NCBI GenBank assembly: GCA_944372195.1
Contig: CALVYK010000001.1
Location: forward strand, 47,644-111,643
DNA from: an uncultured Bacilli bacterium
GTDB lineage: Bacteria; Bacillota_I; Bacilli_A; RF39; UBA660
Direction: 5' to 3'
DNA length: 64,000 bases
The notes under the pieces are model-generated. The model saw nothing but the letters and a program-made list of their open reading frames with translations. It made no database searches and was not told where the DNA came from. Position 1 is the first letter of the stretch, and each line of letters opens with the position of its first letter. The position numbers and the translations under genes were made by a program. This document shows positions 6,326 to 19,072 of this stretch, piece after piece.

Positions 6326-6834
6326 TGGAAAAAATAGTTGAGATATTTATAAATTTATTTGGCGGAATAACTAGTATTAGTTATGGTAAAGAGATATTAA
6401 TATTTTTAATATCGATGATGCCGATTTTAGAATTAAGGGGTGGCATTTTAGCTGCAGCTTTACTAAATATGGATCCTAAAAATAGTTTTATTGTTTGTTT
6501 ATTGGGTAATATAATAGTTATTCCAATCGCTTTGTTTTTATTAGAATTGATATTTAAATTATTAAGAAAAATTAATTTTTTTGATAAAATCATAACTAAA
6601 ATAGAAAATAAATGCTTAAGTAAAAGAGAACAATTAGACAAATATGGTTATTTAGGACTGTTGCTGTTTGTTGGCATTCCTTTACCTGGGACAGGTGCTT
6701 GGACAGGATGCTTTTTAGCTTCTCTACTTGGAATGGATAAGAAAAAATCAGCTGTTGCAGCTATATTAGGGGTTTTAATGGCTGGTATAATTATGATGAT
6801 ATTATCATTTGGCGTATTAAAAAAGATTTTTTAA
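6325..6834 (+). CDS. small multidrug-export-like membrane protein (COG2426/PF06695-like)
   Basis: Four TM helices; LELRGGI motif near the N-terminus. Confidence 0.5.
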   Translation: MEKIVEIFINLFGGITSISYGKEILIFLISMMPILELRGGILAAALLNMDPKNSFIVCLLGNIIVIPIALFLLELIFKLLRKINFFDKIITKIENKCLSKREQLDKYGYLGLLLFVGIPLPGTGAWTGCFLASLLGMDKKKSAVAAILGVLMAGIIMMILSFGVLKKIF

Positions 6835-7601
6835 AATAAGAAAAATCTTTTTTGTTTTTCGATTGCTTCTAAAAAATTTGGTGGCATATATTGTTGGTCT
6901 TCAAAATTAAATAATTGATTATACAAATCCCATAGTTCTTTATCTTTTCCTAATGGTGTATTTATCATTATTCTTTTGTTTGAAATAACTGTTGGAATAT
7001 GATAATAAAACATATATAAAACAATTATATTGTACAAAAATAAATCTAATCTTTCATCTAGTGGTAAAATATTTAAATATGTATTAGTTAATGCTTTAGG
7101 AAAACTATCTGTTTTATATTGATTTATTGTCGAATTGTCCAAATCGCATATGTATACTTTATCACTATTAATTAAAATATTAGAAGCATTAAGGTCACCT
7201 ATAATAATGTTATTCTTATGAGCCTCATTTATTAATTGTTTAATTTTTTTTAATATAATAATTTTTTTTTGGCGACTTTTAAATAGAAATTCATCTAAAG
7301 TAGATGATGGAATAAAATCTATTGTGTAACCTCTAAATTCTCCATCTATAAAAATTAATTCTTTTGCTTTAATAAAACTATCACTTAAATTGATAGTATC
7401 CAAGCATTCTAATTTGTTTTTTTTATTTTGAAGAACGCTTAGATCATATTGAGCATATTTTTTATTTTCATTTTTTCTTCTAAATATTTTAAAAACTTTA
7501 TTATTTTTTATATATAATACACTTTCATAACTTAAATTTGTTAAAATTTTCATATTCTGCAATTCAGTCTCAGTAATATTTATAATATTCATAAATCTCA
7601 C
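6831..7601 (-). CDS. phosphotransferase (APH/choline-kinase-like) family protein
   Basis: Brenner-type motif HKNNIIIGDLNASNILIN followed by ICDLD. Confidence 0.55.
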   Translation of the reverse strand: MRFMNIINITETELQNMKILTNLSYESVLYIKNNKVFKIFRRKNENKKYAQYDLSVLQNKKNKLECLDTINLSDSFIKAKELIFIDGEFRGYTIDFIPSSTLDEFLFKSRQKKIIILKKIKQLINEAHKNNIIIGDLNASNILINSDKVYICDLDNSTINQYKTDSFPKALTNTYLNILPLDERLDLFLYNIIVLYMFYYHIPTVISNKRIMINTPLGKDKELWDLYNQLFNFEDQQYMPPNFLEAIEKQKRFFLF

Positions 7602-7725
7602 CTATAAATATTATATCGTAATTAATTGAATTATCAAATGTTATTTATATAATTAATCATTTAAAATTACAAAAATGTCATATTATTTTATTTATATTTA
7701 GTGTATAATTTAGTTGGGTGGAATT

Positions 7726-8391
7726 ATGAAAATATTAATTGTCGAAGATGATGCTACTATAAGAAGTGGTTTAAAATATTGTTTAGAATATGAAAATTTT
7801 GAAGTTGATGAAGCAATAGGTATTGATTGTTTAGATAAATTAGATAATGTTTCTTTAATTTTATTAGATTTAAATTTACCTGATACTAATGGTTTTGATT
7901 TGTTTAAAAAAATAAAAGAAATTAAGAATATTCCAATTATATTTTTAACGGCTAATGATTTGGAACCTTCCATAGTTATGGGATTAGATATGGGAGCCGA
8001 TGATTATGTAACTAAACCGTTTAAAACAAGAGAATTAATATCAAGAATTAAAAATGTTTTAAGAAGAAATAATCATTATGATCTTATAAAAATAAAAAAT
8101 ATTACAATTGATTTAAAACAAGCTAAAGTATTCAAAAATGGAAAAGACGTTAATTTAACAGCTTTAGAATATAAAATATTATTAACTTTGGCTCTTAATC
8201 CTAATCAAGTATTTACTCGGGAAAAGATTTTAGCTGATATTTGGGATGTTAATGAAGAATATGTATATGATAATACTTTAACTGTTTATATTAAAAGAAT
8301 AAGAGAAAAAATAGAAGATGATGTAACTAATCCGAAAATTATTAAAACAGTAAGAGGAATCGGCTATAAAATAGGTGATGAGAGTGAATAA
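7726..8391 (+). CDS. OmpR-family response regulator; start set at MKILIVEDD
   Basis: REC plus winged-helix domains; extended -10 TGTATAAT at 7702-7709 excludes the longer ORF-track start. Confidence 0.88.
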   Translation: MKILIVEDDATIRSGLKYCLEYENFEVDEAIGIDCLDKLDNVSLILLDLNLPDTNGFDLFKKIKEIKNIPIIFLTANDLEPSIVMGLDMGADDYVTKPFKTRELISRIKNVLRRNNHYDLIKIKNITIDLKQAKVFKNGKDVNLTALEYKILLTLALNPNQVFTREKILADIWDVNEEYVYDNTLTVYIKRIREKIEDDVTNPKIIKTVRGIGYKIGDESE

Positions 8392-9541
8392 AAAATATTT
8401 TATTGTTAATTTTATAGCTATTTTGATTATTATACTATTTTATTTTTTAATTTCTAATGTTATTAATAATAATTATGAAAAACAAATAATTGATAATGAA
8501 AGTTATTTAATTGGTAATTTAATAACTAAACATCCTGATTTAAAAGAAGATATAATATCAAGTTATTTAATTAAAGATAATTATGAAATAGGTAATGATT
8601 TAATAAATGAATACAATTTAATTACTATTAAAAATAACAATATTATTATTTTATTATATTGTTTAATAAGTGCTTTAGTATTATTTGTAATTAATTTTAT
8701 TTATATTAGAAATATCTACAAAAAAATAAGTAAAATTGATAAATATATGAACAATATTTTAAATGATGATTATTCAATTGATATTAAAGATTATTGTGAA
8801 GGGGATATTAGTAATTTAAAAAACGATATATATAAAATGACTATTAAATTAAAAGAACAAAGTGAGTTACTAATTAAAGAGAAAAAGTATTTAGAAGAAA
8901 CTTTACAAGATATATCTCATCAAATCAAAACACCTTTAACTAGTATGTATATGATAAATGATATTTTATTTAATTCCAAAGACCAAAATGTTAAAAAAGA
9001 ATTTTTAATAAAAAATAAAAATCAAATTGAAAGGATTGAATGGTTGGTAACTAGTTTACTTAAACTATCAAGACTAGAAAGTGGAACAGTTAAATTAAAA
9101 AAAGAAAAAATAAATTTAAAAGAATTAATAGATAAAGCCATTGAACCAATTAATGTTTTTTTAGAACTAAAAAATATTAAATTAATTAAAAATATCGAAG
9201 ATACTACTATTAATGTTGATATTAATTGGACTGTTGAAGCATTACTTAATATAATTAAAAATGCATGTGAACATACTCTTGATAAAATAGAAATAATAGG
9301 TAGTACTAATCCTCTTTATACCGAAATAAAAATAGTTGATAATGGTGTAGGTATTAGTAAAAAAGATATTAAACATATTTTTGAACGATTTTATAAGGGA
9401 AATCACAATAAAGAAAGTATCGGAATTGGGCTTAATATGTCTAAAAAAATAATTAATCTACAAAATGGTTTAATTGAGGTATCTTCTAAAGAAGGTGTTG
9501 GTAGTACTTTTATAATTAAGCTATATAAAAATAATTTGTGA
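8375..9541 (+). CDS. sensor histidine kinase (two TM helices, HisKA, HATPase_c)
   Basis: H-box LQDISHQIKTPLT, N and G boxes; overlaps the response-regulator stop codon. Confidence 0.85.
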   Translation: MMRVNKKYFIVNFIAILIIILFYFLISNVINNNYEKQIIDNESYLIGNLITKHPDLKEDIISSYLIKDNYEIGNDLINEYNLITIKNNNIIILLYCLISALVLFVINFIYIRNIYKKISKIDKYMNNILNDDYSIDIKDYCEGDISNLKNDIYKMTIKLKEQSELLIKEKKYLEETLQDISHQIKTPLTSMYMINDILFNSKDQNVKKEFLIKNKNQIERIEWLVTSLLKLSRLESGTVKLKKEKINLKELIDKAIEPINVFLELKNIKLIKNIEDTTINVDINWTVEALLNIIKNACEHTLDKIEIIGSTNPLYTEIKIVDNGVGISKKDIKHIFERFYKGNHNKESIGIGLNMSKKIINLQNGLIEVSSKEGVGSTFIIKLYKNNL

Positions 9542-9543
9542 CG

Positions 9544-9569
9544 AAATTGTAATTAATTTAGTCATTTAA
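9544..9569 (+). promoter_or_regulatory. conserved upstream motif AAATTGT(A/C)A(C/T)-N6-AGTCATTTAA (copy 1 of 3); candidate response-regulator direct-repeat site or promoter
   Basis: Near-identical 60-70 nt 5' regions at 9541-9613, 10972-10999 and 14264-14334 precede all three ABC genes. Confidence 0.45.
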
Positions 9570-9613
9570 TTGTAATAATTATTTAATATAATTATCTTGG
9601 AAGGAGAAATAAT

Positions 9614-10297
9614 ATGGAAATATTAAAAGTAGAAAATTTGTGCAAAAATTATGGTAAAGGAGAAACTTTAGTAAAAGCTTTAGATAATGTTAGCTTTTCA
9701 GTTGAAAAAGGTGAGTTTATTGCTATAGTAGGAAGTAGTGGTTCAGGTAAATCAACTTTATTACATATTTTAGGTGGTGTAGATAGACCAACAAGTGGAA
9801 AAGTATTTGTTGATGGAGTTGATGTATATAAATTAAACGAAACTAATTTAGCAATATTCCGTCGTCGTCAAGTTGGTTTAATTTATCAATTTTATAATTT
9901 GATTCCTATATTAAATATTAAAGAAAATATAACTTTGCCAATTTTATTAGATAATAAAAAACCAGATGAAAAATATTTAAATGAATTAATTGAAACATTA
10001 GGATTAAGTAAAAGAGTAAATCATTTACCTAATGAATTATCAGGTGGTCAACAACAAAGAGTTAGTATTGGTAGAGCTTTGATGAATAGACCGGCTTTAT
10101 TGTTAGCTGATGAACCAACTGGTAACTTGGATAGTAAAGCAGGACGTGAAATAATTGAATTATTAAAACTATCTAATCAAAAATATAAACAAACTATTAT
10201 TATGATTACTCATGATCATAATTTAGCTCTATGTGCCGATAGAATAATTACTTTAGAAGATGGTAAAATAATAAGTGATGAAAAAAATAATAAATAA
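9614..10297 (+). CDS. ABC transporter ATP-binding protein (MacB/BceA/LolD type)
   Basis: Walker A GSSGSGKST, signature LSGGQQQRV, Walker B LLLADEPT. Confidence 0.9.
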   Translation: MEILKVENLCKNYGKGETLVKALDNVSFSVEKGEFIAIVGSSGSGKSTLLHILGGVDRPTSGKVFVDGVDVYKLNETNLAIFRRRQVGLIYQFYNLIPILNIKENITLPILLDNKKPDEKYLNELIETLGLSKRVNHLPNELSGGQQQRVSIGRALMNRPALLLADEPTGNLDSKAGREIIELLKLSNQKYKQTIIMITHDHNLALCADRIITLEDGKIISDEKNNK

Positions 10298-10300
10298 TGT

Positions 10301-10329
10301 TTGACAAAATAATTAATTTATAGTAAAAT
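10301..10329 (+). promoter_or_regulatory. sigmaA promoter, module copy 1
   Basis: TTGACA (10301-6), 17-nt spacer, TAAAAT (10324-9). Confidence 0.7.
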
Positions 10330-10335
10330 GTATAT

Positions 10336-10454
10336 AGATATGAATTATTTCATATATTAAAAAAAGAGATACATTTAATTTTGGATGTTAAGTGTTTTCT
10401 CTAATTATGTTTTGTTGAGAAAACACCGTTCAAAGAAGAATCGGTGTTTTCGTT
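10336..10454 (+). ncRNA. plus-strand leader/sRNA copy 1 with hairpin-1, antiterminator and terminator alternatives
   Basis: Hairpin ACATTTAA...TTAAGTGT; GTGTTTTCTC (10398-10407) is complementary to the terminator left arm GAGAAAACAC (10418-10427). Terminator stem GAAAACACCG/CGGTGTTTTC followed by GTTT. Confidence 0.55.
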
Positions 10455-10472
10455 TAAGATTAGTCCTTATTT

Positions 10473-10559
10473 TTAAGGACTAGGATTGTGTAAAGAACAA
10501 TCATAGCAAATGCTACAATTAGTTGCATTATATATCCTTTCTATAGTTTTAATTTCCAT
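10473..10559 (-). CDS. micro-ORF 1 (28 aa) MEIKTIERIYNATNCSICYDCSLHNPSP
   Basis: RBS GGAGGTGAT (10563-71) at consensus spacing; two in-frame paralogs follow; stop codon sits inside hairpin TAGTCCTTA..TAAGGACTA (10461-82). Confidence 0.5.
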   Translation of the reverse strand: MEIKTIERIYNATNCSICYDCSLHNPSP

Positions 10560-10632
10560 AGAATCACCTCCATCTTTAAAATAAATTAAAAATAGAGTAA
10601 AACACCTAACTATTAAACATATCTCTAAATTA

Positions 10633-10661
10633 ATTATAAATTAATTTAATATAAAAGTCAA
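10633..10661 (-). promoter_or_regulatory. minus-strand sigmaA promoter for micro-ORF 1
   Basis: -35 TTGACT (complement of 10656-61), 17-nt spacer, -10 TATAAT (complement of 10633-8). Confidence 0.65.
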
Positions 10662-10690
10662 CTATAAATTAATTATTTTGCGGATTAATA

Positions 10691-10719
10691 TTGACAGTGA
10701 TGTTAATTTATAGTAAAAT
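10691..10719 (+). promoter_or_regulatory. sigmaA promoter of the degenerate module copy
   Basis: TTGACA, 17 nt, TAAAAT. Confidence 0.55.
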
Positions 10720-10734
10720 AAATATATATATGAA

Positions 10735-10797
10735 TTAATTAGTATTATAAAAATTAATTAGATTTGAATTAATCCTTTCTATAAATTTTTTAATCAT
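10735..10797 (-). pseudogene. degenerate, truncated micro-ORF copy (MIKKFIERINSNLINFYNTN)
   Basis: Retains RBS GGAGGTGATC and the conserved start region but is only 20 aa and has no recognisable minus promoter. Confidence 0.35.
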
Positions 10798-10849
10798 AGA
10801 AGATCACCTCCATATTAATGATTTTTGATGATAAAAATTATTAATACAA

Positions 10850-10957
10850 TTATTTCATATATTAAAAAAAGAGATACATTTAATTTGCAACATTAAATGT
10901 TTCCTCTATTTTGTTGGATAAAGAAAACACCATCCTTAAGTTGAACGGTGTTTTTTT
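10850..10957 (+). promoter_or_regulatory. leader copy with a strong intrinsic terminator, 85 nt upstream of FtsX permease 1
   Basis: Perfect hairpin ACATTTAAT..ATTAAATGT, then AAAACACC/GGTGTTTT plus a T7 run (10951-7). Confidence 0.55.
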
Positions 10958-10971
10958 GTTATTTAATATTA

Positions 10972-10999
10972 CAAAATTGTCACTATATAAGTCATTTAA
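10972..10999 (+). promoter_or_regulatory. conserved upstream motif copy 2 (CAAAATTGTCAC-N6-AGTCATTTAA)
   Basis: Same motif as upstream of the ATPase gene and permease 2. Confidence 0.4.
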
Positions 11000-11041
11000 A
11001 AATAATAATATTTTGTTATAATATCTTAAAGGAGTAATATT

Positions 11042-13525
11042 ATGAAAATATTAAATATTTTGACTATTAAACATTTAAAAGCAAATAAAAAAAGAACCAT
11101 TTTAACAATCATGGGAATCATGCTAGCCACTTTTTTAATGATTGAATTAGGGCTATTATTTTCTAGTTTTAGAGATAATGGAATTCGAACAACTATTAAA
11201 TATAATGGAGATTATCATGTTAATTTAAATGTGAAAAAAGAAGATTTAAATTTCATTTCTAAAAATGATAATGTTTTAGATTATAAATATAAGTCTAATT
11301 TAGGATATTCATTATATGAAGGATTACAAAATAAAAAATATCTACAAGTTTTAACAGCGTCTAAAAGTTATTTAGATGATTTAAAGTTAATTGAAGGAAG
11401 ATTACCAAATAATGAAAATGAAGTCATTATTTCAAATAATATTAAAACTGAAGGAAATGTTGATTTAAATGTTGGAGATACTATTAAATTAAATATTGGT
11501 CAAAGACAGTGTGATGGCAAATTATTAGGGGAAAGTGCTTATGTAGTTGAATATAAATATTTGAGTGATGGAACAGTAGAAATTGTAAAAGAAGAACATT
11601 TAATAAATACATCGCCAAAAGAATATAAAATTGTTGGTATCGTTGAAAAAGATATATATGAAGAATATTCTAATCCAGGATATAGTGTATTTACAATTTC
11701 AGAACCTATCGATTTATTAAATGTATATGTAAAATATAAAAATGTTTTTAAGACAATACAAAATAGTGATTCTATTATAAAAAATTTAAATTATGAAAGT
11801 GATTTAAAATATAATGATAGTTTACTTTATTATTATGGAATAGGAGAAAATAATAATTTTATTAAATTTTCAATTTCAATATTACTAATTATTTTAATAT
11901 TAATTACATTTGCAAGTGTTATTGTAATTTATAATGCTTTTGCTATATCAGTTACCGAACGAATAAAACAATTTGGTTTATTTTCAAGTATCGGCGCTAC
12001 TAAGAAACAATTAAGATATACAATATTTTTTGAAGTTTTTGTAGTAGGTACTATTGGTATTGTACTAGGATTAATTTTATCTTTTATTGGTATTAATATT
12101 ATTTTATCAATTATTAATAAATTATTAGTTAATAGTTTATCTATTCCATTAGAATTATCAATATATCCTTTATATATATTGATTTCTCTTATTTTTATTA
12201 TTTTAACTATTGCTTTAGCAGCTTATTATCCTTCTAAAAAAGCGAGTAGAGTAAGTCCTATTGAAGCAATTAGATTAAATAATGAAATTAAAATTAAAAA
12301 GTTCAGAACACCTAAATTAATTCAAAAATTAGGTATTGAAGCAGAGGTTGCTTACAAAAATATGAAAAGAAATAAGAAAAAATATAATATAACTATTTTA
12401 TCATTATTTTTAAGTATTGTTTTATATGTTTCATTTAGTTCGTTTTTAAACTATACAATTGAATCTAGTAAAGATGCTATGGATATTCCAAGTTATGATT
12501 ATTTTGTTAGATTATCTGGTAAAGATAAAAATAAAATAGATGAAATCATTAATCAAGTTTTAAATGTTGAGGGAGTAAAGCAGAATAGTTTAATTGAATT
12601 AAAAACATTAGAATCTGATTTTAATCTAGATTATTATACTGATGAAGTAATAAACGAATTTGGAATAAGTAGTAGTCCTAAACAATATGTTCATTTATAT
12701 ATGTTAGATGATAAAACATATGAACAAGTTAAAAAACAACTTAATATTAAAGATAGACCAATTTTGTTAAATTATTTAGATGAAGAGGGATGGATAAATA
12801 AAGATATCAAAGGCTTTAATTTATATAAAGATATTAGTAGTTTAAATATATATGATAATAATAATAATTTTGTTTTAGATAATATTTATATGTCTGATAT
12901 TAAAATAGAAAATGTTGAACCTTGGATTTATACATATACTTTAATTGTTGATGAAGATACATTTAATAAAATTAAAACCGATGAATATAATATAACATTA
13001 ACTTTAAATGGCGATAATTTTACTAAAGTCGATGAATTATTACATCAAGATATTTTAGATGTTAGTATTAGTACTGATAATATTAAACAAACGATGCAGG
13101 AACAATACAATACTTTATTAGCATATAAAATAATATTATATGGTTTTGTTGTTTTGATAACTTTAATCGGTGTTACTAGTGTTATTAATACAATAAATAT
13201 GAGTGTTACTTTAAGAAGACAAGAATTTGCAATGTTAAGAAGTATCGGTTTAACACCTGAAGGATTTAATAAAATGATAATTTTTGAATGTTTATTATTT
13301 GGTTTGAAATCATTAATTTATGGAATATCGATATCATTAATTATAACTTATTTATTTCATTTAGCATTTAATAAAATGGCAAAAACTAGTTTAATAATAC
13401 CATATACAAGTATAATAATATCTGTATTTAGCATATTTATAATTGTTTTAATGACTATGTGGTACACTACTAAAAAAATAAAAAAAGAAAACATTTTAGA
13501 TATTATTAGAAAAGAAAGTATTTGA
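11042..13525 (+). CDS. ABC transporter permease, FtsX/MacB-BceB family, paralog 1
   Basis: 827 aa; N-terminal TM, two large extracytoplasmic domains and two FtsX 3-4 TM bundles. Confidence 0.85.
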   Translation: MKILNILTIKHLKANKKRTILTIMGIMLATFLMIELGLLFSSFRDNGIRTTIKYNGDYHVNLNVKKEDLNFISKNDNVLDYKYKSNLGYSLYEGLQNKKYLQVLTASKSYLDDLKLIEGRLPNNENEVIISNNIKTEGNVDLNVGDTIKLNIGQRQCDGKLLGESAYVVEYKYLSDGTVEIVKEEHLINTSPKEYKIVGIVEKDIYEEYSNPGYSVFTISEPIDLLNVYVKYKNVFKTIQNSDSIIKNLNYESDLKYNDSLLYYYGIGENNNFIKFSISILLIILILITFASVIVIYNAFAISVTERIKQFGLFSSIGATKKQLRYTIFFEVFVVGTIGIVLGLILSFIGINIILSIINKLLVNSLSIPLELSIYPLYILISLIFIILTIALAAYYPSKKASRVSPIEAIRLNNEIKIKKFRTPKLIQKLGIEAEVAYKNMKRNKKKYNITILSLFLSIVLYVSFSSFLNYTIESSKDAMDIPSYDYFVRLSGKDKNKIDEIINQVLNVEGVKQNSLIELKTLESDFNLDYYTDEVINEFGISSSPKQYVHLYMLDDKTYEQVKKQLNIKDRPILLNYLDEEGWINKDIKGFNLYKDISSLNIYDNNNNFVLDNIYMSDIKIENVEPWIYTYTLIVDEDTFNKIKTDEYNITLTLNGDNFTKVDELLHQDILDVSISTDNIKQTMQEQYNTLLAYKIILYGFVVLITLIGVTSVINTINMSVTLRRQEFAMLRSIGLTPEGFNKMIIFECLLFGLKSLIYGISISLIITYLFHLAFNKMAKTSLIIPYTSIIISVFSIFIIVLMTMWYTTKKIKKENILDIIRKESI

Positions 13526-13550
13526 CAAAATAATTAATCTATAGTAAAAT
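13522..13550 (+). promoter_or_regulatory. sigmaA promoter, module copy 2 (overlaps the permease 1 stop codon)
   Basis: TTGACA, 17 nt, TAAAAT. Confidence 0.65.
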
Positions 13551-13556
13551 GTATAT

Positions 13557-13671
13557 AGATATGAATTAATTCATATACTAAAAAAAGAGATACATTTAAT
13601 TTCCTATGTTAAGTGCTTTCTCTGTTAATTTTTTGGAAAGCACCGTTCAAAGCTGATCGGTGTTTTATTTT
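13557..13671 (+). ncRNA. plus-strand leader/sRNA copy 2
   Basis: Same architecture as copy 1. Carries GTGCTTTC and GAAAGCAC, a compensatory change relative to copy 1; terminator AAAGCACCG/CGGTGTTTT. Confidence 0.55.
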
Positions 13672-13769
13672 AATCTTTGTTTTTTATTGCTAATACTGTA
13701 TAAAATACAATCATAGAAAATATTATAACTAATTGCATTTGAAGTCCTTTCATTTGTTCTGAAGGTCAT
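13665..13769 (-). CDS. micro-ORF 2 (34 aa) MTFRTNERTSNAISYNIFYDCILYSISNKKQRLK
   Basis: RBS GGAGGTGATC; paralog of micro-ORFs 1 and 3 with a C-terminal extension. Confidence 0.45.
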   Translation of the reverse strand: MTFRTNERTSNAISYNIFYDCILYSISNKKQRLK

Positions 13770-13835
13770 AAAGATCACCTCCGTTTTTACTAAAACAGAG
13801 TAAAACACCTAACTATTAAATATATCTCTAAATTA

Positions 13836-13864
13836 GTTATAAATTAATTTGATACAAAAGTCAA
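13836..13864 (-). promoter_or_regulatory. minus-strand promoter for micro-ORF 2
   Basis: -35 TTGACT (complement of 13859-64), 17-nt spacer, -10 TATAAC. Confidence 0.55.
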
Positions 13865-13888
13865 CTATAAATTAATCACTTAATATTA

Positions 13889-13917
13889 TTGACAAAATAA
13901 TTAATCTATAGTAAAAT
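13889..13917 (+). promoter_or_regulatory. sigmaA promoter, module copy 3
   Basis: TTGACA, 17 nt, TAAAAT. Confidence 0.65.
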
Positions 13918-13923
13918 GTATAT

Positions 13924-14043
13924 AGGTATGAATTAATTCATATATTAAAAAAAGAGATACATTTAATTTTGCATGTTAAGTGTTTTCCCTATATTGTTTG
14001 TGTGAAAAAACACCGTTCAAAGTTGAATCGGTGTTTTCATTTA
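13924..14043 (+). ncRNA. plus-strand leader/sRNA copy 3
   Basis: Hairpin-1 plus terminator GAAAAAACACCG/CGGTGTTTTC followed by ATTT. Confidence 0.55.
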
Positions 14044-14059
14044 AGATTAGTCCTTATTT

Positions 14060-14146
14060 TTAAGGACTAGAATTGTATAAAATACAATCATAGCAAATGC
14101 TACAATTAATTGCATTTGAAGTCCTTTCATTTATATTGAAGGTCAT
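14060..14146 (-). CDS. micro-ORF 3 (28 aa) MTFNINERTSNAINCSICYDCILYNSSP
   Basis: RBS GGAGGTGATC (14151-9); stop codon inside hairpin 14048-14069. Confidence 0.5.
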   Translation of the reverse strand: MTFNINERTSNAINCSICYDCILYNSSP

Positions 14147-14212
14147 AAAGATCACCTCCGTTTCTACTAAAACAGAGTAAAACACCTAACTATTAAACAT
14201 ATCTCTAAATTA

Positions 14213-14241
14213 ATTATAAATTAATTTAGTATAAAAATCAA
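14213..14241 (-). promoter_or_regulatory. minus-strand promoter for micro-ORF 3
   Basis: -35 TTGATT, 17-nt spacer, -10 TATAAT (complement of 14213-8). Confidence 0.55.
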
Positions 14242-14263
14242 TTATAAATTAACACAATATGAC

Positions 14264-14290
14264 AAAATTGTCACGGCATTAGTCATTTAA
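14264..14290 (+). promoter_or_regulatory. conserved upstream motif copy 3
   Basis: GACAAAATTGTCAC GGCATT AGTCATTTAA; the downstream 5'UTR is about 85% identical to 9560-9613. Confidence 0.4.
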
Positions 14291-14334
14291 TTGTAATAAT
14301 AATTTAATACAATTATTATGGAGGGAGAAATAAT

Positions 14335-16911
14335 ATGAAAATATTAAATAATTTAACAATTAAACACTTAAAAGCAAATAAAAAAAGAACTATAGTAACA
14401 ATTATAGGTATTATTTTATCAACTGCTTTAATGGTTGGAATTGGATTGTTATTTTCAACAGTAAGAGATAATTCAGTGAAAATGATCATTGAAAATAATG
14501 GTGATCATCACGTGGCAATTGAACTAGAAAAATCTAAATTAGATTTTATTGCTAAAAACGATAGTGTATTAAAATATAAATATAAATCTAGTTTAGGTTA
14601 TTCATTATATGAAGGTATTAATAATGAGTATAAACCTTATATTAAAGTATTAACAGCATCAGATGAATATTTAAATGATTTAAAACTGATAGAAGGAAGA
14701 TTACCTAATAACGAAAACGAAATAGTTATACCTGAACATTTAGAAACTAATGGCGAAGTAAAATTAAATATTGGTGATAAAATTGTTTTAAATATCGGCC
14801 AAAGAGTAGCTAATGATGGAACATTATTGGGCGACACTCCATATGTTTATGAATATTCTTGTGATGAAAATAATGTTTGTACAACAGATGTTAATAAATC
14901 AGATGAACATTTAATTAATACTGTAAAGAAAGAATATACAGTAGTAGGAATTATAGAAAGAGATATTCAAGAAGATTATCAAGATCCAGGATATAATGCT
15001 TTTACATTATCTGAACCTAGTGATTTATTAACTGTTTATGTTAATTATAAAAATATTAAAGATACATATAAAAATACCAAAATTATTGCTAAGAATTTAG
15101 GTAATGAAGAAGTATATGATAATTTATATTATGGTATAAGTTATAATGATAATTTACTGGCATTTTCTGGTGTATCTAATTATAGTAATATGATAGATTC
15201 TATGGCGTTTATTATAATTATAATTCTAGCTTTAGTTTCAATTGCTTGTATTATTGTTATATATAATTCATTTGCTATTTCGGTAATGGAAAGGAAAAAA
15301 CAATTTGGTTTATTTTCAAGTATCGGTGCTACTAAAAAACAATTAAAGCATACTGTATTTTTTGAAGCTTTTATAGTAGGTATTATTGGTATACCATTAG
15401 GTGTTTTATCAGCTTATTTAGGTATTGGAATAGTTTTAATGATCGTTAATAAATTATTACCTAATATGTTTGATTTCCCACTTGCCTTAGCGACATATCC
15501 ATTATTCATTATTATTCCAATAATATTTATGATAATAACAATATTAGTTTCAGCTTTCTTACCAGCTAGAAGTGCTAGTAAAGTAAGTCCTATTGAAGCT
15601 ATTAGATTAAATGATGATATAAAAATAAAATCAAAAAAATTAAAAACACCTAAAATAATTAAATTTTTTGGTGTTGAAGGTGAAATAGCTTATAAAAATA
15701 TGAAAAGAAATAAGAAAAAATATCGAATAACTATAATTTCATTATTTATAAGCATAGTATTATTTGTATCATTTAGTAGCTTATTAAAATATGGATTAAG
15801 AAGTGTTTATGATTATACTGAACTACCAGAATATGAATATACATTTAATATGAGTAGTGATAATAAAGAAAGTATAGATAATATAATTAATCAAGTCTTA
15901 AAAGTAGATGGTATTAGAAAATATAGTATAATTAGACCAATTTATTATTATGCTGATAAAAATGATGATTATTATACAAAAGAATTAAAAGATAGTTATG
16001 ATGAAAGTTCTTTTGAAAATGATGTTATAAATATAATGATTCTTACTTTAGATAATAAATCTTATGAACAATATAAAAAAGAAATCAAATTAAATTCAGA
16101 TTATCCAATTTTATTAAATATATTAAATAAAATAGATTATACAGATAATTCGAGAAAACAAATTAAAATAACACCTTACAATAAAATTACTTCTTTAGAA
16201 ATATTTAGTTATGATAAAAAAGTAAATCATAAATTAGAAAATATATTTATAACTGATATTTTACCATTTGGTGTTGATAATACTTATGTTAATACTATGA
16301 TGTTTGTAGTTAATGAAAGTATGTATAATGAATTAAAATATGATAATAATTATCAATTAGAAATGTGTTTAATAGCTGATAATTATGATGAATTTGATAA
16401 AATGTTAGATAGTGAAAGTAAAGAAAATATTTTAACAGATGATATAAGCATCTATACTATGAATATTAAAAAAGAAATGCAATTATTATCCAATATAGTA
16501 TTTGTTATTAAATTATTATTATATGGTTTTATTAGTTTAGTAACATTAATCGGTATTACTAGTGTAATAAATACTATTAATACTAGTATAGCTTTAAGAA
16601 AAAAAGAATTTGCCGTATTAAGAAGTATTGGACTTACTCCTCATGGATTTAATAAAATGATGTTATTTGAATGTTTATTCTTTGGACTTAAGTCATTATT
16701 ATATGGTTTACCTGTTTCATTTATAGTTATATATTTATTCCATTTATCATTTAATGGTATTGTAGCATTTGATAGTTTGTTAATACCATATGGAAGTATA
16801 TTAATAGCTATATTTGGAGTATTTATTATAGTTTTAATAAGTATGTGGTATGCTACTATAAGAATTAAAAAAGCCAATATTTTAGATGCAATAAGAGAAG
16901 AAAATATTTAA
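14335..16911 (+). CDS. ABC transporter permease, FtsX/MacB-BceB family, paralog 2
   Basis: 858 aa, about 50% identical to permease 1, same topology. Confidence 0.85.
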   Translation: MKILNNLTIKHLKANKKRTIVTIIGIILSTALMVGIGLLFSTVRDNSVKMIIENNGDHHVAIELEKSKLDFIAKNDSVLKYKYKSSLGYSLYEGINNEYKPYIKVLTASDEYLNDLKLIEGRLPNNENEIVIPEHLETNGEVKLNIGDKIVLNIGQRVANDGTLLGDTPYVYEYSCDENNVCTTDVNKSDEHLINTVKKEYTVVGIIERDIQEDYQDPGYNAFTLSEPSDLLTVYVNYKNIKDTYKNTKIIAKNLGNEEVYDNLYYGISYNDNLLAFSGVSNYSNMIDSMAFIIIIILALVSIACIIVIYNSFAISVMERKKQFGLFSSIGATKKQLKHTVFFEAFIVGIIGIPLGVLSAYLGIGIVLMIVNKLLPNMFDFPLALATYPLFIIIPIIFMIITILVSAFLPARSASKVSPIEAIRLNDDIKIKSKKLKTPKIIKFFGVEGEIAYKNMKRNKKKYRITIISLFISIVLFVSFSSLLKYGLRSVYDYTELPEYEYTFNMSSDNKESIDNIINQVLKVDGIRKYSIIRPIYYYADKNDDYYTKELKDSYDESSFENDVINIMILTLDNKSYEQYKKEIKLNSDYPILLNILNKIDYTDNSRKQIKITPYNKITSLEIFSYDKKVNHKLENIFITDILPFGVDNTYVNTMMFVVNESMYNELKYDNNYQLEMCLIADNYDEFDKMLDSESKENILTDDISIYTMNIKKEMQLLSNIVFVIKLLLYGFISLVTLIGITSVINTINTSIALRKKEFAVLRSIGLTPHGFNKMMLFECLFFGLKSLLYGLPVSFIVIYLFHLSFNGIVAFDSLLIPYGSILIAIFGVFIIVLISMWYATIRIKKANILDAIREENI

Positions 16912-16941
16912 AAAAACTAATGGGTTTCCATTAGTTTTTTG
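16912..16941. terminator. bidirectional intrinsic terminator
   Basis: AAAAAACTAATGG gttt CCATTAGTTTTTT. Confidence 0.8.
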
Positions 16942-17092
16942 GTGCATAATCTTAATAATATTAAAAGTATAATAATAGGTGATAAAACAAGAAATAAAAC
17001 AGTTGAAATAGTTAAACCAATTGCAACAATACTTAAATTTTTGATAATATCGCCTCATTTCTAATATAAAATTATAGCACACATTTCTAGTA

Positions 17093-17120
17093 TTGACAAG
17101 TTTTAAAAATATGATACAAT
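17093..17120 (+). promoter_or_regulatory. promoter of the aspS T-box leader
   Basis: TTGACA, 16 nt, TGaTACAAT. Confidence 0.6.
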
Positions 17121-17139
17121 ATATTTAATATTTGTTTGA

Positions 17140-17325
17140 AAGAGTATATATATTGATTAAATAGAGAGCTGGTGTTGGGTGAAAATCAGTTAAGAAATAT
17201 ATAGAAAGACATCAAACTATAAAATAATCGGTTAATCCCGTTAAAGATTTAAGAGCATAGAATTCTATGAAATAAGGTGGCACCGCGATATTATTCGTCC
17301 TTATATTTATAGGATTTTTTTAATT
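17140..17325 (+). promoter_or_regulatory. T-box riboswitch leader (Asp specifier GAC)
   Basis: Stem-I AGAGA; specifier context AAAGACA (GAC 17208-10); T-box sequence AAGGTGGCACCGCG at 17272-87; U-tract 17316-23. Confidence 0.75.
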
Positions 17326-17338
17326 ATGAGGAGGATTT

Positions 17339-19072
17339 ATGAAAGTAAATAATAATACAGATTTTAATATTAAAAATGTAGGTGAAGTAGTAACATTATA
17401 TGGTTGGGTTGCTAAAAAAAGAAATTTAGGTGGTTTAATATTTATTGATTTAAGGGATAGAAGCGGCATTATTCAGTTAGTTGTTAAGCCGGATAATAAA
17501 TATTACGATTTGGCTGAATCTTTAAAAAATGAATATGTTATTAAAGTAGTAGGAAGTATAACTGAAAGAGAAAGTAAAAACAAAATTTTATTAACTGGTG
17601 ATATTGAAGTTATAATTAATGAATTAGAAGTATTAAATACTAGTATCGATTTACCTTTTAATTTAAATGATACTACGGCTTTAGAAGATACAAGATTAAA
17701 ATATCGTTATTTAGATTTAAGAAGAAGTGAAATAAAAGAAAAGTTAGAAGCTAGACATAAAATTACTTTTGCAATAAGAGAATATTTAAATAAATTAAAT
17801 TTCTTAGAAATTGAAACTCCAATTTTATGTAAAAGTACACCTGAAGGAGCAAGAGACTATTTAGTTCCATCTCGTATATTTAATGGTAAATTTTATGCTT
17901 TACCTCAATCACCACAAATATTTAAACAATTATTAATGATTGGTGGTATGGAAAGATATTTTCAAATTGCTAAATGTTTTAGAGATGAAGATTTAAGAGC
18001 AGATCGACAACCTGAATTTACGCAAGTTGATATGGAAATGAGTTTTGTAACTGAAGATGATGTTATGAATCTAACTGAAGGATTAATTGCTTATATTTTT
18101 AAACAAGTAAAAAATATTGATATTAAATTACCTTTAAGAAAAATGAAATATGATGATGCAATAGAATATTATGGATCTGATAAACCTGATTTAAGATTTG
18201 ATATGAAAATTAATGACATAACTGATATTTTTAAAAATACAGAATTTACTATTTTTAAAGATGTATTAAATAATAATGGTATTATTAATTGTTTAGTTGT
18301 TAAAAATAATGCGGATAAATTTTCAAGAAAAGATATTGATAAATTAACTGATTTTGTTAAAACATATAAAGCAAAAGGTTTGGTTTATCTTAAAATAGAT
18401 AATGAAGTAACAGGAAGTATTGCTAAGGTTATCTCTTTAGAAGAATTAAACAATTTGAAATCTAAATTAAATTTAGAAAATAATGATTTAATTTTAATAA
18501 TATCTGATAAAAAACAAGTAGTAAAACAAGCATTGGGTGCTTTAAGATTACATTTAGGTAAACAATTAAATTTAATAAGTGACAATTATGAATTATTATG
18601 GGTTGTTGATTTTCCATCTTTTGAGTATAGTGAAGAAGAAAATAGATATGTAGCTTGTCACCATCCTTTTACCGCTCCAAAAGATAGTGATATCGATAAA
18701 CTATTAACTGATAAAGCTAACTGTTATTCTAAAGCTTATGACATTGTAATTAATGGTTATGAAGCTGGTGGTGGAAGCATTAGAATTCATGATCAAGGAG
18801 TTCAAAAGAAAATGTTTGAAGCATTAGAATTGACAGACGAACAAATTAAAGAAAAATTTGGTTTCTTCGTTGATGCATTAAAATACGGAACACCTCCACA
18901 TGGTGGTTTAGCGTTAGGTTTAGATAGATTAACTATGCTACTTACAAATACAGAAAATATAAGAGATGTTATTGCATTTCCTAAAACTGCTAGTGCATCT
19001 GATTTAATGAGTGAATGTCCAAATGTAGTAGATGAAAAGCAACTAAAAGAGTTAGGTATAAAAACAGTTTAG
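17339..19072 (+). CDS. aspS: aspartate--tRNA ligase
   Basis: Class II aaRS motifs (FRDEDLRADRQPEFTQVD; GGGSIRIH; GLDRL). Confidence 0.92.
   Translation: MKVNNNTDFNIKNVGEVVTLYGWVAKKRNLGGLIFIDLRDRSGIIQLVVKPDNKYYDLAESLKNEYVIKVVGSITERESKNKILLTGDIEVIINELEVLNTSIDLPFNLNDTTALEDTRLKYRYLDLRRSEIKEKLEARHKITFAIREYLNKLNFLEIETPILCKSTPEGARDYLVPSRIFNGKFYALPQSPQIFKQLLMIGGMERYFQIAKCFRDEDLRADRQPEFTQVDMEMSFVTEDDVMNLTEGLIAYIFKQVKNIDIKLPLRKMKYDDAIEYYGSDKPDLRFDMKINDITDIFKNTEFTIFKDVLNNNGIINCLVVKNNADKFSRKDIDKLTDFVKTYKAKGLVYLKIDNEVTGSIAKVISLEELNNLKSKLNLENNDLILIISDKKQVVKQALGALRLHLGKQLNLISDNYELLWVVDFPSFEYSEEENRYVACHHPFTAPKDSDIDKLLTDKANCYSKAYDIVINGYEAGGGSIRIHDQGVQKKMFEALELTDEQIKEKFGFFVDALKYGTPPHGGLALGLDRLTMLLTNTENIRDVIAFPKTASASDLMSECPNVVDEKQLKELGIKTV

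Follow-up and report, generated by a model that had tools for sequence, protein, structure and literature searches.

The 64-kb stretch of DNA from an uncultured gut Bacilli bacterium analysed here (64,000 nucleotides (nt), 24.7% G+C; 'the window' below) carries on its plus strand, between 7.6 and 17 kb, the genes for a response regulator, a sensor histidine kinase, and an ATP-binding cassette (ABC) ATPase and two FtsX permeases (P1 and P2) of a stress-type transporter, followed by a T-box leader and aspS. The 5′ regions of the three transporter genes share a sequence which is probably the operator and core promoter of the OmpR/PhoB-type regulator encoded at the locus; with a further copy before the regulator gene it would be present four times and would keep the split transporter genes co-regulated. 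An earlier interpretation of this DNA from its letters (the sequence-only reading) had proposed part of this scheme. Its regulatory interpretation is largely right but incomplete, whereas its evolutionary interpretation needs to be inverted.

The regions upstream of the ATPase gene (9541-9613) and of P2 (14262-14334) are identical at 61 of 73 bases in an ungapped alignment (83.6%), while random pairs of 73-nt segments from the window reach 52 ± 4%. The figure of about 85% proposed from sequence was therefore close, with a start for the P2 region (14264) that was off register by 2 nt. The region upstream of P1 is 75% identical to the ATPase region and 72% identical to the P2 region. Homology of the three 5′ regions spans the interval from the palindromic box to the ATG, and the likeness ends just 5′ of the box: the 60 nt preceding the shared ATPase and P2 regions are 55% identical. 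The core ACRAAATTGTMAY-N6-AGTCATTTAA, which P1 had also been said to share, is found, with up to three mismatches allowed and both strands of the 64 kb scanned, three times: at 9541, 10971 and 14262 (0.02 in shuffled sequences). All three stand upstream of transporter genes, one per gene, and the match at 10971 is that of P1. AGTCATTTAA alone occurs three times in the window against 0.45 expected, TNACNAAATTGTNA three times against 0.39, and the palindrome TGACn-AAAT-TGTmA is present in the window only at the three transporter sites. The starts of the half-sites TGTCA/TGTAA and AGTCA are 12 nt apart, in agreement with the spacing of about 12 base pairs (bp) given earlier.

In full, the transporter operator has the form TGACn-AAAT-TGTmA-N7-AGTCA-N6-TGTAA-N11-TATAAT. 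It comprises a palindrome, TGACA-N4-TGTCA, whose arms are called H1 and H2 here, and two half-sites, H3 and H4, which are direct with H2 and follow at +12 and +11 bp. The sequence-only reading had described a direct repeat of the OmpR/PhoB type. The direct half-sites at 11-12 bp stand, but the description missed that there are four half-sites including a palindrome, of which the TGTCA of that reading is the right arm and an inverted TGACA the left arm. H4 ends 11 nt before TATAAT or TACAAT, a -10 element assigned by sequence in DNA where promoter-like hexamers occur at chance frequency. The spacing from box to -10 is 34 nt at both the P1 and the ATPase promoters, and the transporter promoters lack a good -35 hexamer.

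This geometry is conserved among relatives. With P2 as the query, 80 related loci (L numbers below) were fetched and the five genes mapped in each; the motif scans took in the window and 1.3 Mb of related loci (1.38 Mb in total, both strands). The nearest public sequences are metagenome-assembled genomes (MAGs) labelled uncultured Bacilli or Tenericutes, and among the relatives is Candidatus Faecisoma, assigned by NCBI to Mycoplasmatota incertae sedis. The consensus which the relatives share 5′ of the ATPase gene is TGAC[A/T/G]-N4-TGT[C/A]A-N7-[A/T]GTCA-N6-[A/T]GT[C/A]A-N10-11-TATAAT. Across 56 distinct promoters, which stem from uncultured Bacilli/Mycoplasmatota MAGs with permeases 45-96% identical, H1 reads TGAC[A/T/G] in 53, the H2-to-H3 spacing is 12 nt in 51, the H3-to-H4 spacing is 11 nt in 48, and a -10-like hexamer lies 31 or 34 nt past the box in 44. 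Of the 77 matches to the composite motif in this DNA, 64 are at most 170 nt 5′ of an ATPase, P1 or P2 gene, and nine further ones sit between kinase and ATPase genes in loci with an extra small intervening gene. Random recurrence of the motif in AT-rich DNA, a possibility raised beforehand, is ruled out, as nearly all of these matches are at transporter promoters. Judged by its conservation, the motif is a real, selected regulatory element.

Several observations connect this element with the two-component system. In 52 of the 80 related loci the transporter is immediately preceded by regulator and kinase genes. In the window, the palindrome TTACAAAAATGTCA precedes the regulator gene, 5′ of an extended -10 (Table 1). 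The six closest relatives have TTACAAAATTGTCA at the position of this box, and the strict palindrome occurs at a fixed distance from an extended -10 in 26 of the 52 regulator-gene upstream regions. No direct half-sites follow the palindrome here, and the -10 was again called from sequence. Compared with the transporter boxes, the regulator-gene box lies 11 nt (one helical turn) nearer to the -10, so that its proximal half-site takes the position held by H3 in the transporter promoters; this suggests that the regulator contacts the H3 position in all four promoters. The presence of a fourth box before the regulator-kinase operon likewise suggests autoregulation. Such a regulon, the two-component operon plus the transporter genes, is what a cognate regulator usually has. 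Given the conserved motif, its confinement and the box before the regulator gene, binding of the neighbouring regulator of the OmpR/PhoB type to the motif is very likely, as the sequence-only reading had presumed.

Known operators resemble this element in two ways. At Pho promoters the tandem box ends about 10-11 bp upstream of the -10, in place of the -35 hexamer, and the tandem part of the present operator ends at the same distance from the predicted -10. Furthermore, the half-site (T/A)GTCA(T/C) and its 11-bp tandem periodicity resemble the CTGTCAT direct repeats which E. coli PhoB binds head-to-tail (PMC4415409). In contrast to the Pho box, an extra inverted half-site forms a palindrome here and H2 and H3 are 12 bp apart, not 11; moreover, the controlled genes are not phosphate genes. 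GraR, BceR and VirR bind inverted repeats, and the S. aureus GraR operator is ACAAAWKTGT, with AAGTGACA-N4-TGTCATTT upstream of vraFG (PMC3128592). The palindrome of the window contains ACAAAATTGT, the experimentally supported S. aureus GraR core, and fits the Bce-like operator consensus AnnTTACnAnnnnGTnAG (PMC10858260). As in GraR, BceR and VirR modules, a two-component system adjoins FtsX-type ABC transporter genes, and as in graS-vraFG the operator is located where the kinase gene ends, before the transporter genes. Compared with GraR/BceR/VirR operators, that of the window has two extra direct half-sites, and the two-component operon appears autoregulated here, unlike graXRS (PMC3128592).

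What the data show is the sequence with its statistics, its conservation and the order of the genes; from these we infer regulator binding, transcription starts, activation and ATPase sharing as follows. H2-H4 would lie on one face of the helix, with the tandem part ending about 10 bp upstream of the -10, where the phosphorylated regulator, probably as two dimers, would recruit RNA polymerase as PhoB does at the Pho box. Recruitment is proposed because no good -35 hexamer is found, which makes activator dependence plausible. The palindrome-only fourth copy would provide positive autoregulation of the regulator-kinase operon. In the ancestral state, seen in relatives, one promoter would have driven a translationally coupled ATPase-permease operon. 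In the window lineage, cassettes with predicted strong bidirectional terminators separate the genes, and the ATPase gene and each permease gene have their own copy of the predicted promoter, 5′ untranslated region (UTR) and ribosome-binding site. One signal would induce the ATPase together with both permeases, and two transporters of different specificity would be built around the same ATPase dimer. The triplication of operator and promoter is ordinary regulatory rewiring, neatly illustrated: co-regulation survives the break-up of the operon by copying the whole promoter, 5′ UTR and ribosome-binding site onto each gene.

At the junction between the two operons, the kinase stop codon TGA (9539-9541) provides the first three bases of the ATPase half-site H1, and the kinase-ATPase interval is without a terminator. 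Read-through from the two-component operon probably gives basal expression of the ATPase, not of the permeases.

Some findings weigh against the proposed scheme. In several loci (e.g. L020, L026, L036) the box is present although no two-component genes are found within 10 kb, and about half of the loci lack the regulator-gene box. The loose palindrome TNAC-N6-GTNA is unenriched across the window (12 found, 11.7 expected); only the specific version of the palindrome is informative, so that the case for the fourth box is a comparative one. Promoter-like hexamers in the window are as frequent as in shuffled sequences (108 against 110 expected), and the -10 and -35 calls were made by eye in DNA of 25% G+C. 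H4 is degenerate at the P1 promoter. Lastly, the best solved relatives of the regulator are MtrA, RegX3 and KdpE, to which it is nearer than to NsrR (5dcl), the regulator of a Bce-type system and the only one of the lantibiotic-resistance type among the solved structures listed. Every NCBIfam equivalog score of the regulator is below its cutoff (PhoB 176 against 296 bits), and the resemblance of the operator to those of GraR and BceR may be convergent.

How much of the element is operator can be debated. The palindrome recurs alone 5′ of the regulator gene and fits published GraR/Bce-type operators, TAGTCA agrees with TTGACA at four of six positions, and P1 has the degenerate H4 just mentioned. 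On these grounds the H1/H2 palindrome could be the only operator, bound by one head-to-head dimer in the manner proposed for GraR, BceR and VirR, with AGTCA and TGTAA as core-promoter features (a -35-like element and spacer). We consider this unlikely: H3 and H4 repeat the H2 sequence [A/T]GT[C/A]A at a strict 12 and 11 bp in 48-51 of the 56 promoters, which a -35 element does not need, AGTCA is 22 nt from the -10 and thus too distant for a -35 hexamer, and the proximal half-site of the regulator-gene box coincides with the H3 position. The binding factor has also to be considered. If the operator served another transcription factor whose gene lies elsewhere, such as a dimeric repressor binding the palindrome, the proximity of the two-component system would be coincidental. 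Palindromes are indeed typical of repressor operators, some boxed loci have no adjacent two-component system, and the related B. subtilis ytr operon is under the repressor YtrA, not a two-component system (PMC12772383). However, no other regulator gene is conserved beside the transporter, whereas regulator and kinase are adjacent in 52 of 80 loci and their own promoter has the same box. Moreover, a TGTCA half-site with 11-bp tandem phasing is the pattern of the OmpR/PhoB family, and the missing -35 element is expected under activator dependence. The involvement of such an outside factor is thus very improbable.

It is hardly conceivable that the likeness is a mere residue of recent segmental duplication. 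Identity between the ATPase and P2 regions does extend over the whole 73 nt, non-motif positions included. Yet among genomes whose permeases are 45-55% identical the half-sites are conserved while linkers and flanks have diverged, and orthologues of the ATPase-type copy and of the P2-type copy of the promoter can each be followed through at least nine genomes, which makes the duplication old. We therefore retain the four-copy operator of the adjacent regulator as the most probable reading.

Table 1. Features of the two-component and transporter locus in the window; promoters, operators and ribosome-binding sites are predicted
Feature	Position	Strand	Details and basis
Two-component operon promoter	7667..7709	+	palindromic box TTACAAAAATGTCA 7667-7680, 23 nt, extended -10 TGTATAAT 7702-7709
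Response regulator, OmpR/PhoB family	7726..8391	+	221 amino acids, ATG at 7726; Pfam Response_reg and Trans_reg_C
Sensor histidine kinase	8375..9541	+	388 amino acids; Pfam HisKA and HATPase_c; hydropathy
ATPase promoter and 5′ region	9539..9613	+	H1 TGACG 9539-9543, H2 TGTAA 9548-9552, H3 AGTCA 9560-9564, H4 TGTAA 9571-9575; -10 TATAAT 9587-9592; ribosome-binding site GGAAGGAG 9599-9606; sequence, geometry conserved in 56 promoters
ABC ATPase, MacB/LolD-like	9614..10297	+	227 amino acids; Pfam ABC_tran; NCBIfam best matches LolD and MacB N-terminus
Cassette 1	10301..10671	both	
Cassette 1, arm A		+	promoter TTGACA-17-TAAAAT 10301-10329; RNA ~125 nt; bidirectional terminator 10419-10450
Cassette 1, arm B		-	promoter 10661..10633; Shine-Dalgarno GGAGGTGAT; upstream open reading frame (ORF) 10559..10473
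Cassette 1, hydrophobic ORF	10528..10460	-	22 amino acids, MQLIVAFAMIVLYTILVLKNKD; overlaps arm B upstream ORF
Degenerate, rearranged cassette	10691..10955		arm A promoter, truncated minus-strand arm B remnant, 3′ part of arm A and terminator
P1 promoter and 5′ region	10969..11041	+	H1 TTACA 10969-10973, H2 TGTCA 10978-10982, H3 AGTCA 10990-10994, H4 degenerate AATAA 11001-11005; extended -10 TGTTATAAT 11014-11022; ribosome-binding site AAGGAG 11029-11034
Permease 1 (P1)	11042..13525	+	827 amino acids; fused-dimer FtsX/MacB-type
Cassette 2	13522..13875		arm A promoter overlaps P1 stop codon
Cassette 2, hydrophobic ORF	13753..13670	-	MKGLQMQLVIIFSMIVFYTVLAIKNKD
Cassette 3	13889..14257		hydrophobic ORF 14130..14047 (-); minus-strand promoter 14241..14213
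P2 promoter and 5′ region	14260..14334	+	H1 TGACA 14260-14264, H2 TGTCA 14269-14273, H3 AGTCA 14281-14285, H4 TGTAA 14292-14296; -10 TACAAT 14308-14313; ribosome-binding site GGAGGGAG 14320-14327
Permease 2 (P2)	14335..16911	+	858 amino acids; orthologue of the single permease in related genomes

The proteins of the locus invite comparison with Bce-like modules, in which the kinase has two transmembrane (TM) segments at most 20 amino acids apart and the permease has exactly 10 TM segments with a loop of more than 170 amino acids between TM7 and TM8 (PMC3023708). Hydropathy predicts the TM segments of the present kinase at residues 9-27 and 90-108, which leaves an outer loop of about 62 amino acids. 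For the permeases, simple hydropathy predicts eight TM segments, with loops of about 250 (TM1-TM2) and about 237 amino acids (TM5-TM6), and two extracellular domains, each of about 240 amino acids. An identity with BceRS-BceAB was rejected on both counts, the kinase loop and the permease topology. In common with Bce-like modules, a TNACA-N4-TGTNA-type palindrome is found upstream of the transporter genes. As far as its sequence tells, the locus is a so far uncharacterised analogue of the Bce-type modules and does not belong to their family.

Pfam places two FtsX domains in each permease, among them those at about residues 283-406 in P1 and 732-849 in P2, and a sub-threshold MacB_PCD match occurs at the N-terminus of P2 (20.5 bits, cutoff 27). 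By its predicted architecture the permease is an internal duplication of the four-TM MacB unit. The arrangement is of type VII: the permease has two FtsX modules in which an extracytoplasmic domain follows the first TM segment, and the MacB/LolD-like ATPase is a separate protein. Among solved structures the best permease match is YtrF (residues 11-424, E = 4e-9); MacB, LolC/F, PsdB (E = 1.4e-4) and YbbP match weakly. The combination of a separate MacB/LolD-like ATPase with fused FtsX modules is that of YbbAP (E. coli YbbP) and YtrEF (B. subtilis YtrF), and for YbbAP the extraction of hydrophobic compounds from the membrane has been reported (PMC12646458). The present locus differs from both systems in its low sequence similarity, its two-component control and its two permease genes per ATPase gene. 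The named subfamilies are not matched: ADOP TIGR03434 scores 46-51 bits against 622, and YbbP NF041854 20-29 against 999. A plus-strand ORF of 37-49 amino acids with one predicted TM segment (e.g. MRKKERLEYANIALLIVVGLILVVLGFYLCLNGSFVN) lies between the regulator box and the ATPase gene in some distant relatives (L038:9187, L044:6564, L080:7067, L050:3951) and recalls YtrG, a small membrane protein of the B. subtilis ytrGABCDEF operon.

Both permeases had been proposed to be served by one ATPase. Consistently, the locus has a single MacB/LolD-like ATPase gene, which they would share; the only other ABC ATPase in the window, near 48 kb, is 32% identical (tblastn). The analysis thus provides an operator and regulon prediction for an uncharacterised class of modules which is widespread in uncultured gut Bacilli and Mycoplasmatota. 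This class joins a two-component system to a fused MacB-type ABC transporter, and resembles in its working the Bce-type modules for peptide-antibiotic resistance, but lacks two of their defining features.

P1 and P2 are 53% identical over their full length, close to the earlier estimate of two paralogs of 830-860 amino acids with about 50% identity. Identity is lowest in the second extracellular domain (35%) and highest in TM1 (78%). One ATPase gene with two separately promoted permeases of diverged extracellular domains suggests a simple widening of substrate range.

The sequence-only reading held that P2 had been added to the locus. Instead, P2 groups with the single permeases of relatives (79.7% identity to L003, 68% to L006, 62% to L018, 55% to L011), whereas P1 is a long-branch copy, 42-53% identical to the same proteins. 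In a search of 5.8 billion proteins the P1-type sequences cluster tightly at 81-100% identity, with no matches between these and 54%, and a donor lineage of P1 was sought there and not found. The two most divergent P1-type proteins again occur in ATPase-P1-P2 loci with cassettes, and P1 is found only within the three-promoter arrangement. On this evidence P1 is the lineage-specific, fast-diverged copy and P2 the orthologue of the ancestral permease. The claim that the control region of P2 was duplicated does hold: it is a copy of that of the ATPase gene, as is that of P1.

In all single-permease loci, the permease gene begins right next to the ATPase stop codon or overlaps it. In contrast, genes are separated by gaps of about 225-1210 nt in the window clade (L001, L002, L004, L010, L015, L019, L081, L084, L086 and L087). 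Transcripts from the ATPase and P1 promoters should stop at the cassette terminators, so that each downstream gene needs its own promoter. In all relatives the ATPase and permease ORFs share nearly identical first 14 nt (ATG-RAA-ATW-TTA-AA). A plausible route for the copying of promoter, 5′ UTR and ribosome-binding site is recombination at this start-codon microhomology: within a duplicated unit, it would put the ATPase 5′ region precisely onto a permease ORF. L003 (CALVKK010000024.1) has a coupled ATPase-permease operon with neither P1 nor cassettes. The L003 permease and P2 of L086, a locus with the complete three-promoter arrangement, are 90.9% identical, while the kinase and ATPase of L003 are similar to those found in the L006 clade. 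This mosaic likeness points to recombination between lineages or secondary loss, and thus to a reticulate history.

The cassettes between the genes had been missed by the sequence-only reading and are the least explained part of the locus. They measure about 370 nt, with three copies and one degenerate copy in the window and 0-3 per gap across the window clade. The degenerate copy matches positions 43-149 only of the arm A profile, and its terminator (about 10925-10955) is immediately 5′ of the P1 operator. Arm A has a near-consensus promoter, TTGACA-17-TAAAAT, on or just past the preceding stop codon. Its RNA of about 125 nt has three predicted hairpins (z = -3.9) and ends in a bidirectional terminator, whose hairpin has U-runs on both strands and is flanked by near-consensus convergent promoters. 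On the opposite strand, arm B has a good promoter and a 5′ UTR in which a predicted 9-bp hairpin (z = -5.6) would hide the Shine-Dalgarno sequence. This Shine-Dalgarno sequence, GGAGGTGAT(C), is extended and strong, and two overlapping reading frames come after it.

One of these frames encodes a hydrophobic peptide of 20-27 amino acids, M(Q/E)L(I/V)V(A/I)F(A/I)(M/T)IV(L/F)YTILVLK(N)KD, and is kept in 27 of 28 copies, with changes synonymous in this frame. L009 has no ATG-initiated hydrophobic ORF; a possible TTG start was read by hand. Two variants of the peptide occur, …IVAFAMIV…VLKNKD and …VIIFSMIV…AIKNKD. The other, Cys-rich frame (MTFNINERTSNAINCSICYDC...) was rejected as the cassette product, since its cysteines are not conserved and L002:5715 carries an interrupted version. 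That it is open over the hydrophobic stretch comes about automatically: the second codon positions of the hydrophobic frame, which are mostly T, serve as its third positions. Only the Cys-rich frame directly follows the strong Shine-Dalgarno sequence, and it may act as a translated, mok-like leader.

Pairing between arm A RNA and the peptide mRNA was assessed with RNAduplex. For 12 cognate pairs, z-scores against dinucleotide shuffles range from -1.1 to -5.4 and eight pairs are beaten by at most one of 100 shuffles, on a high AU-rich background. Pairing from the Shine-Dalgarno sequence to the AUG covers 10-14 of 19 nt in eight of the 12 pairs and 5-8 nt in three, and one is without a Shine-Dalgarno match. 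A pairing, drawn by hand, of the variable loop of arm A hairpin 2 with the peptide start codon was not shared by the cassettes and was discarded. In cassette 3, for example, the terminator 5′ arm (GAGAAAACAC, window 14008-14017) and the 3′ arm of hairpin 2 (GUGUUUUCUC, 13981-13990) are complementary. A terminator/antiterminator switch in arm A (GTGTTTTCTC versus GAGAAAACAC) is weakly suggested: in the alignments two variants are compensatory (GTGCTTTC with GAAAGCAC, GTGTTTCC with GGAAACAC), while about four others are uncompensated.

Database searches returned no relatives of the cassettes. Rfam (E <= 1, positions 7000-17500) reported the aspS T-box only, Pfam gave no significant match for either small frame, and blastn against plasmid and phage collections gave none for the cassette. 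Among the contigs examined, cassettes were found at this locus only. A metagenome-wide scan for the cassette pattern returned five contigs, of which all four with enough flank represent this locus; the fifth (L083) is 1.5 kb long and holds arm A only. In the L006-L009/L032 clade the cassettes lie between kinase and ATPase genes, in the window clade between transporter genes.

From these sequences the cassettes look like type I toxin-antitoxin loci. As in par/Fst, convergent promoters share a bidirectional intrinsic terminator, the product is a small hydrophobic peptide with a charged C-terminal tail (here KNKD), a predicted 5′ stem-loop sequesters the Shine-Dalgarno sequence, and the RNAs may be partly complementary at their 5′ ends. 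A chromosomal par locus has likewise been described between paralogous transporter operons (PMC7472228). Unlike par/Fst, the peptides of 20-27 amino acids have no PXXXG(C) motif, no copy has Pro or Gly in its core, and the cassettes form tandem arrays restricted to one locus. An upstream ORF which overlaps the peptide ORF is also unlike par/Fst and is reminiscent of mok/hok. The cassettes are thus a candidate for a new type I toxin-antitoxin-like family, strictly linked to a membrane transporter.

The last cassette is close to the P2 operator: the -35 of the cassette 3 minus-strand promoter lies 18 nt from H1 of P2 (window 14213-14273). The arrangement, with 17-18 nt between last-cassette promoter and palindrome, is also found in L001, L008, L009, L010, L015 and L032, that is, in two sister clades. 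The palindrome would then have its centre near -60 relative to the divergent peptide promoter, from where it could influence the two promoters. A functional role of the cassettes can be imagined in which their peptides of 20-22 amino acids are self-made membrane-active compounds, the MacB-type transporter extracts or exports them, the two-component system senses their load in the membrane, and the two peptide variants have co-diversified with the two permeases and their divergent extracellular domains. Such a role would explain the restriction to one locus, the fixed orientation and the peptide promoter 17-18 nt from the palindrome in most arrays; all the same, we regard it as distinctly unlikely.

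The flanks of the locus hold a few further features. A 256-amino-acid ORF on the minus strand (6831-7601) is divergent from the two-component operon and has weak, below-threshold matches to protein kinase, Bud32 and lanthionine-synthetase kinase domains (E about 1e-4 to 1e-8). At the other end, a hairpin at 16911-16940 was called a minus-strand terminator by the scan; with its symmetric A/T runs it may also end P2 transcripts. It is followed by the T-box leader (Rfam RF00230, 115 bits; 17128-17305), 5′ of the aspartyl-tRNA synthetase gene (17339-19072).

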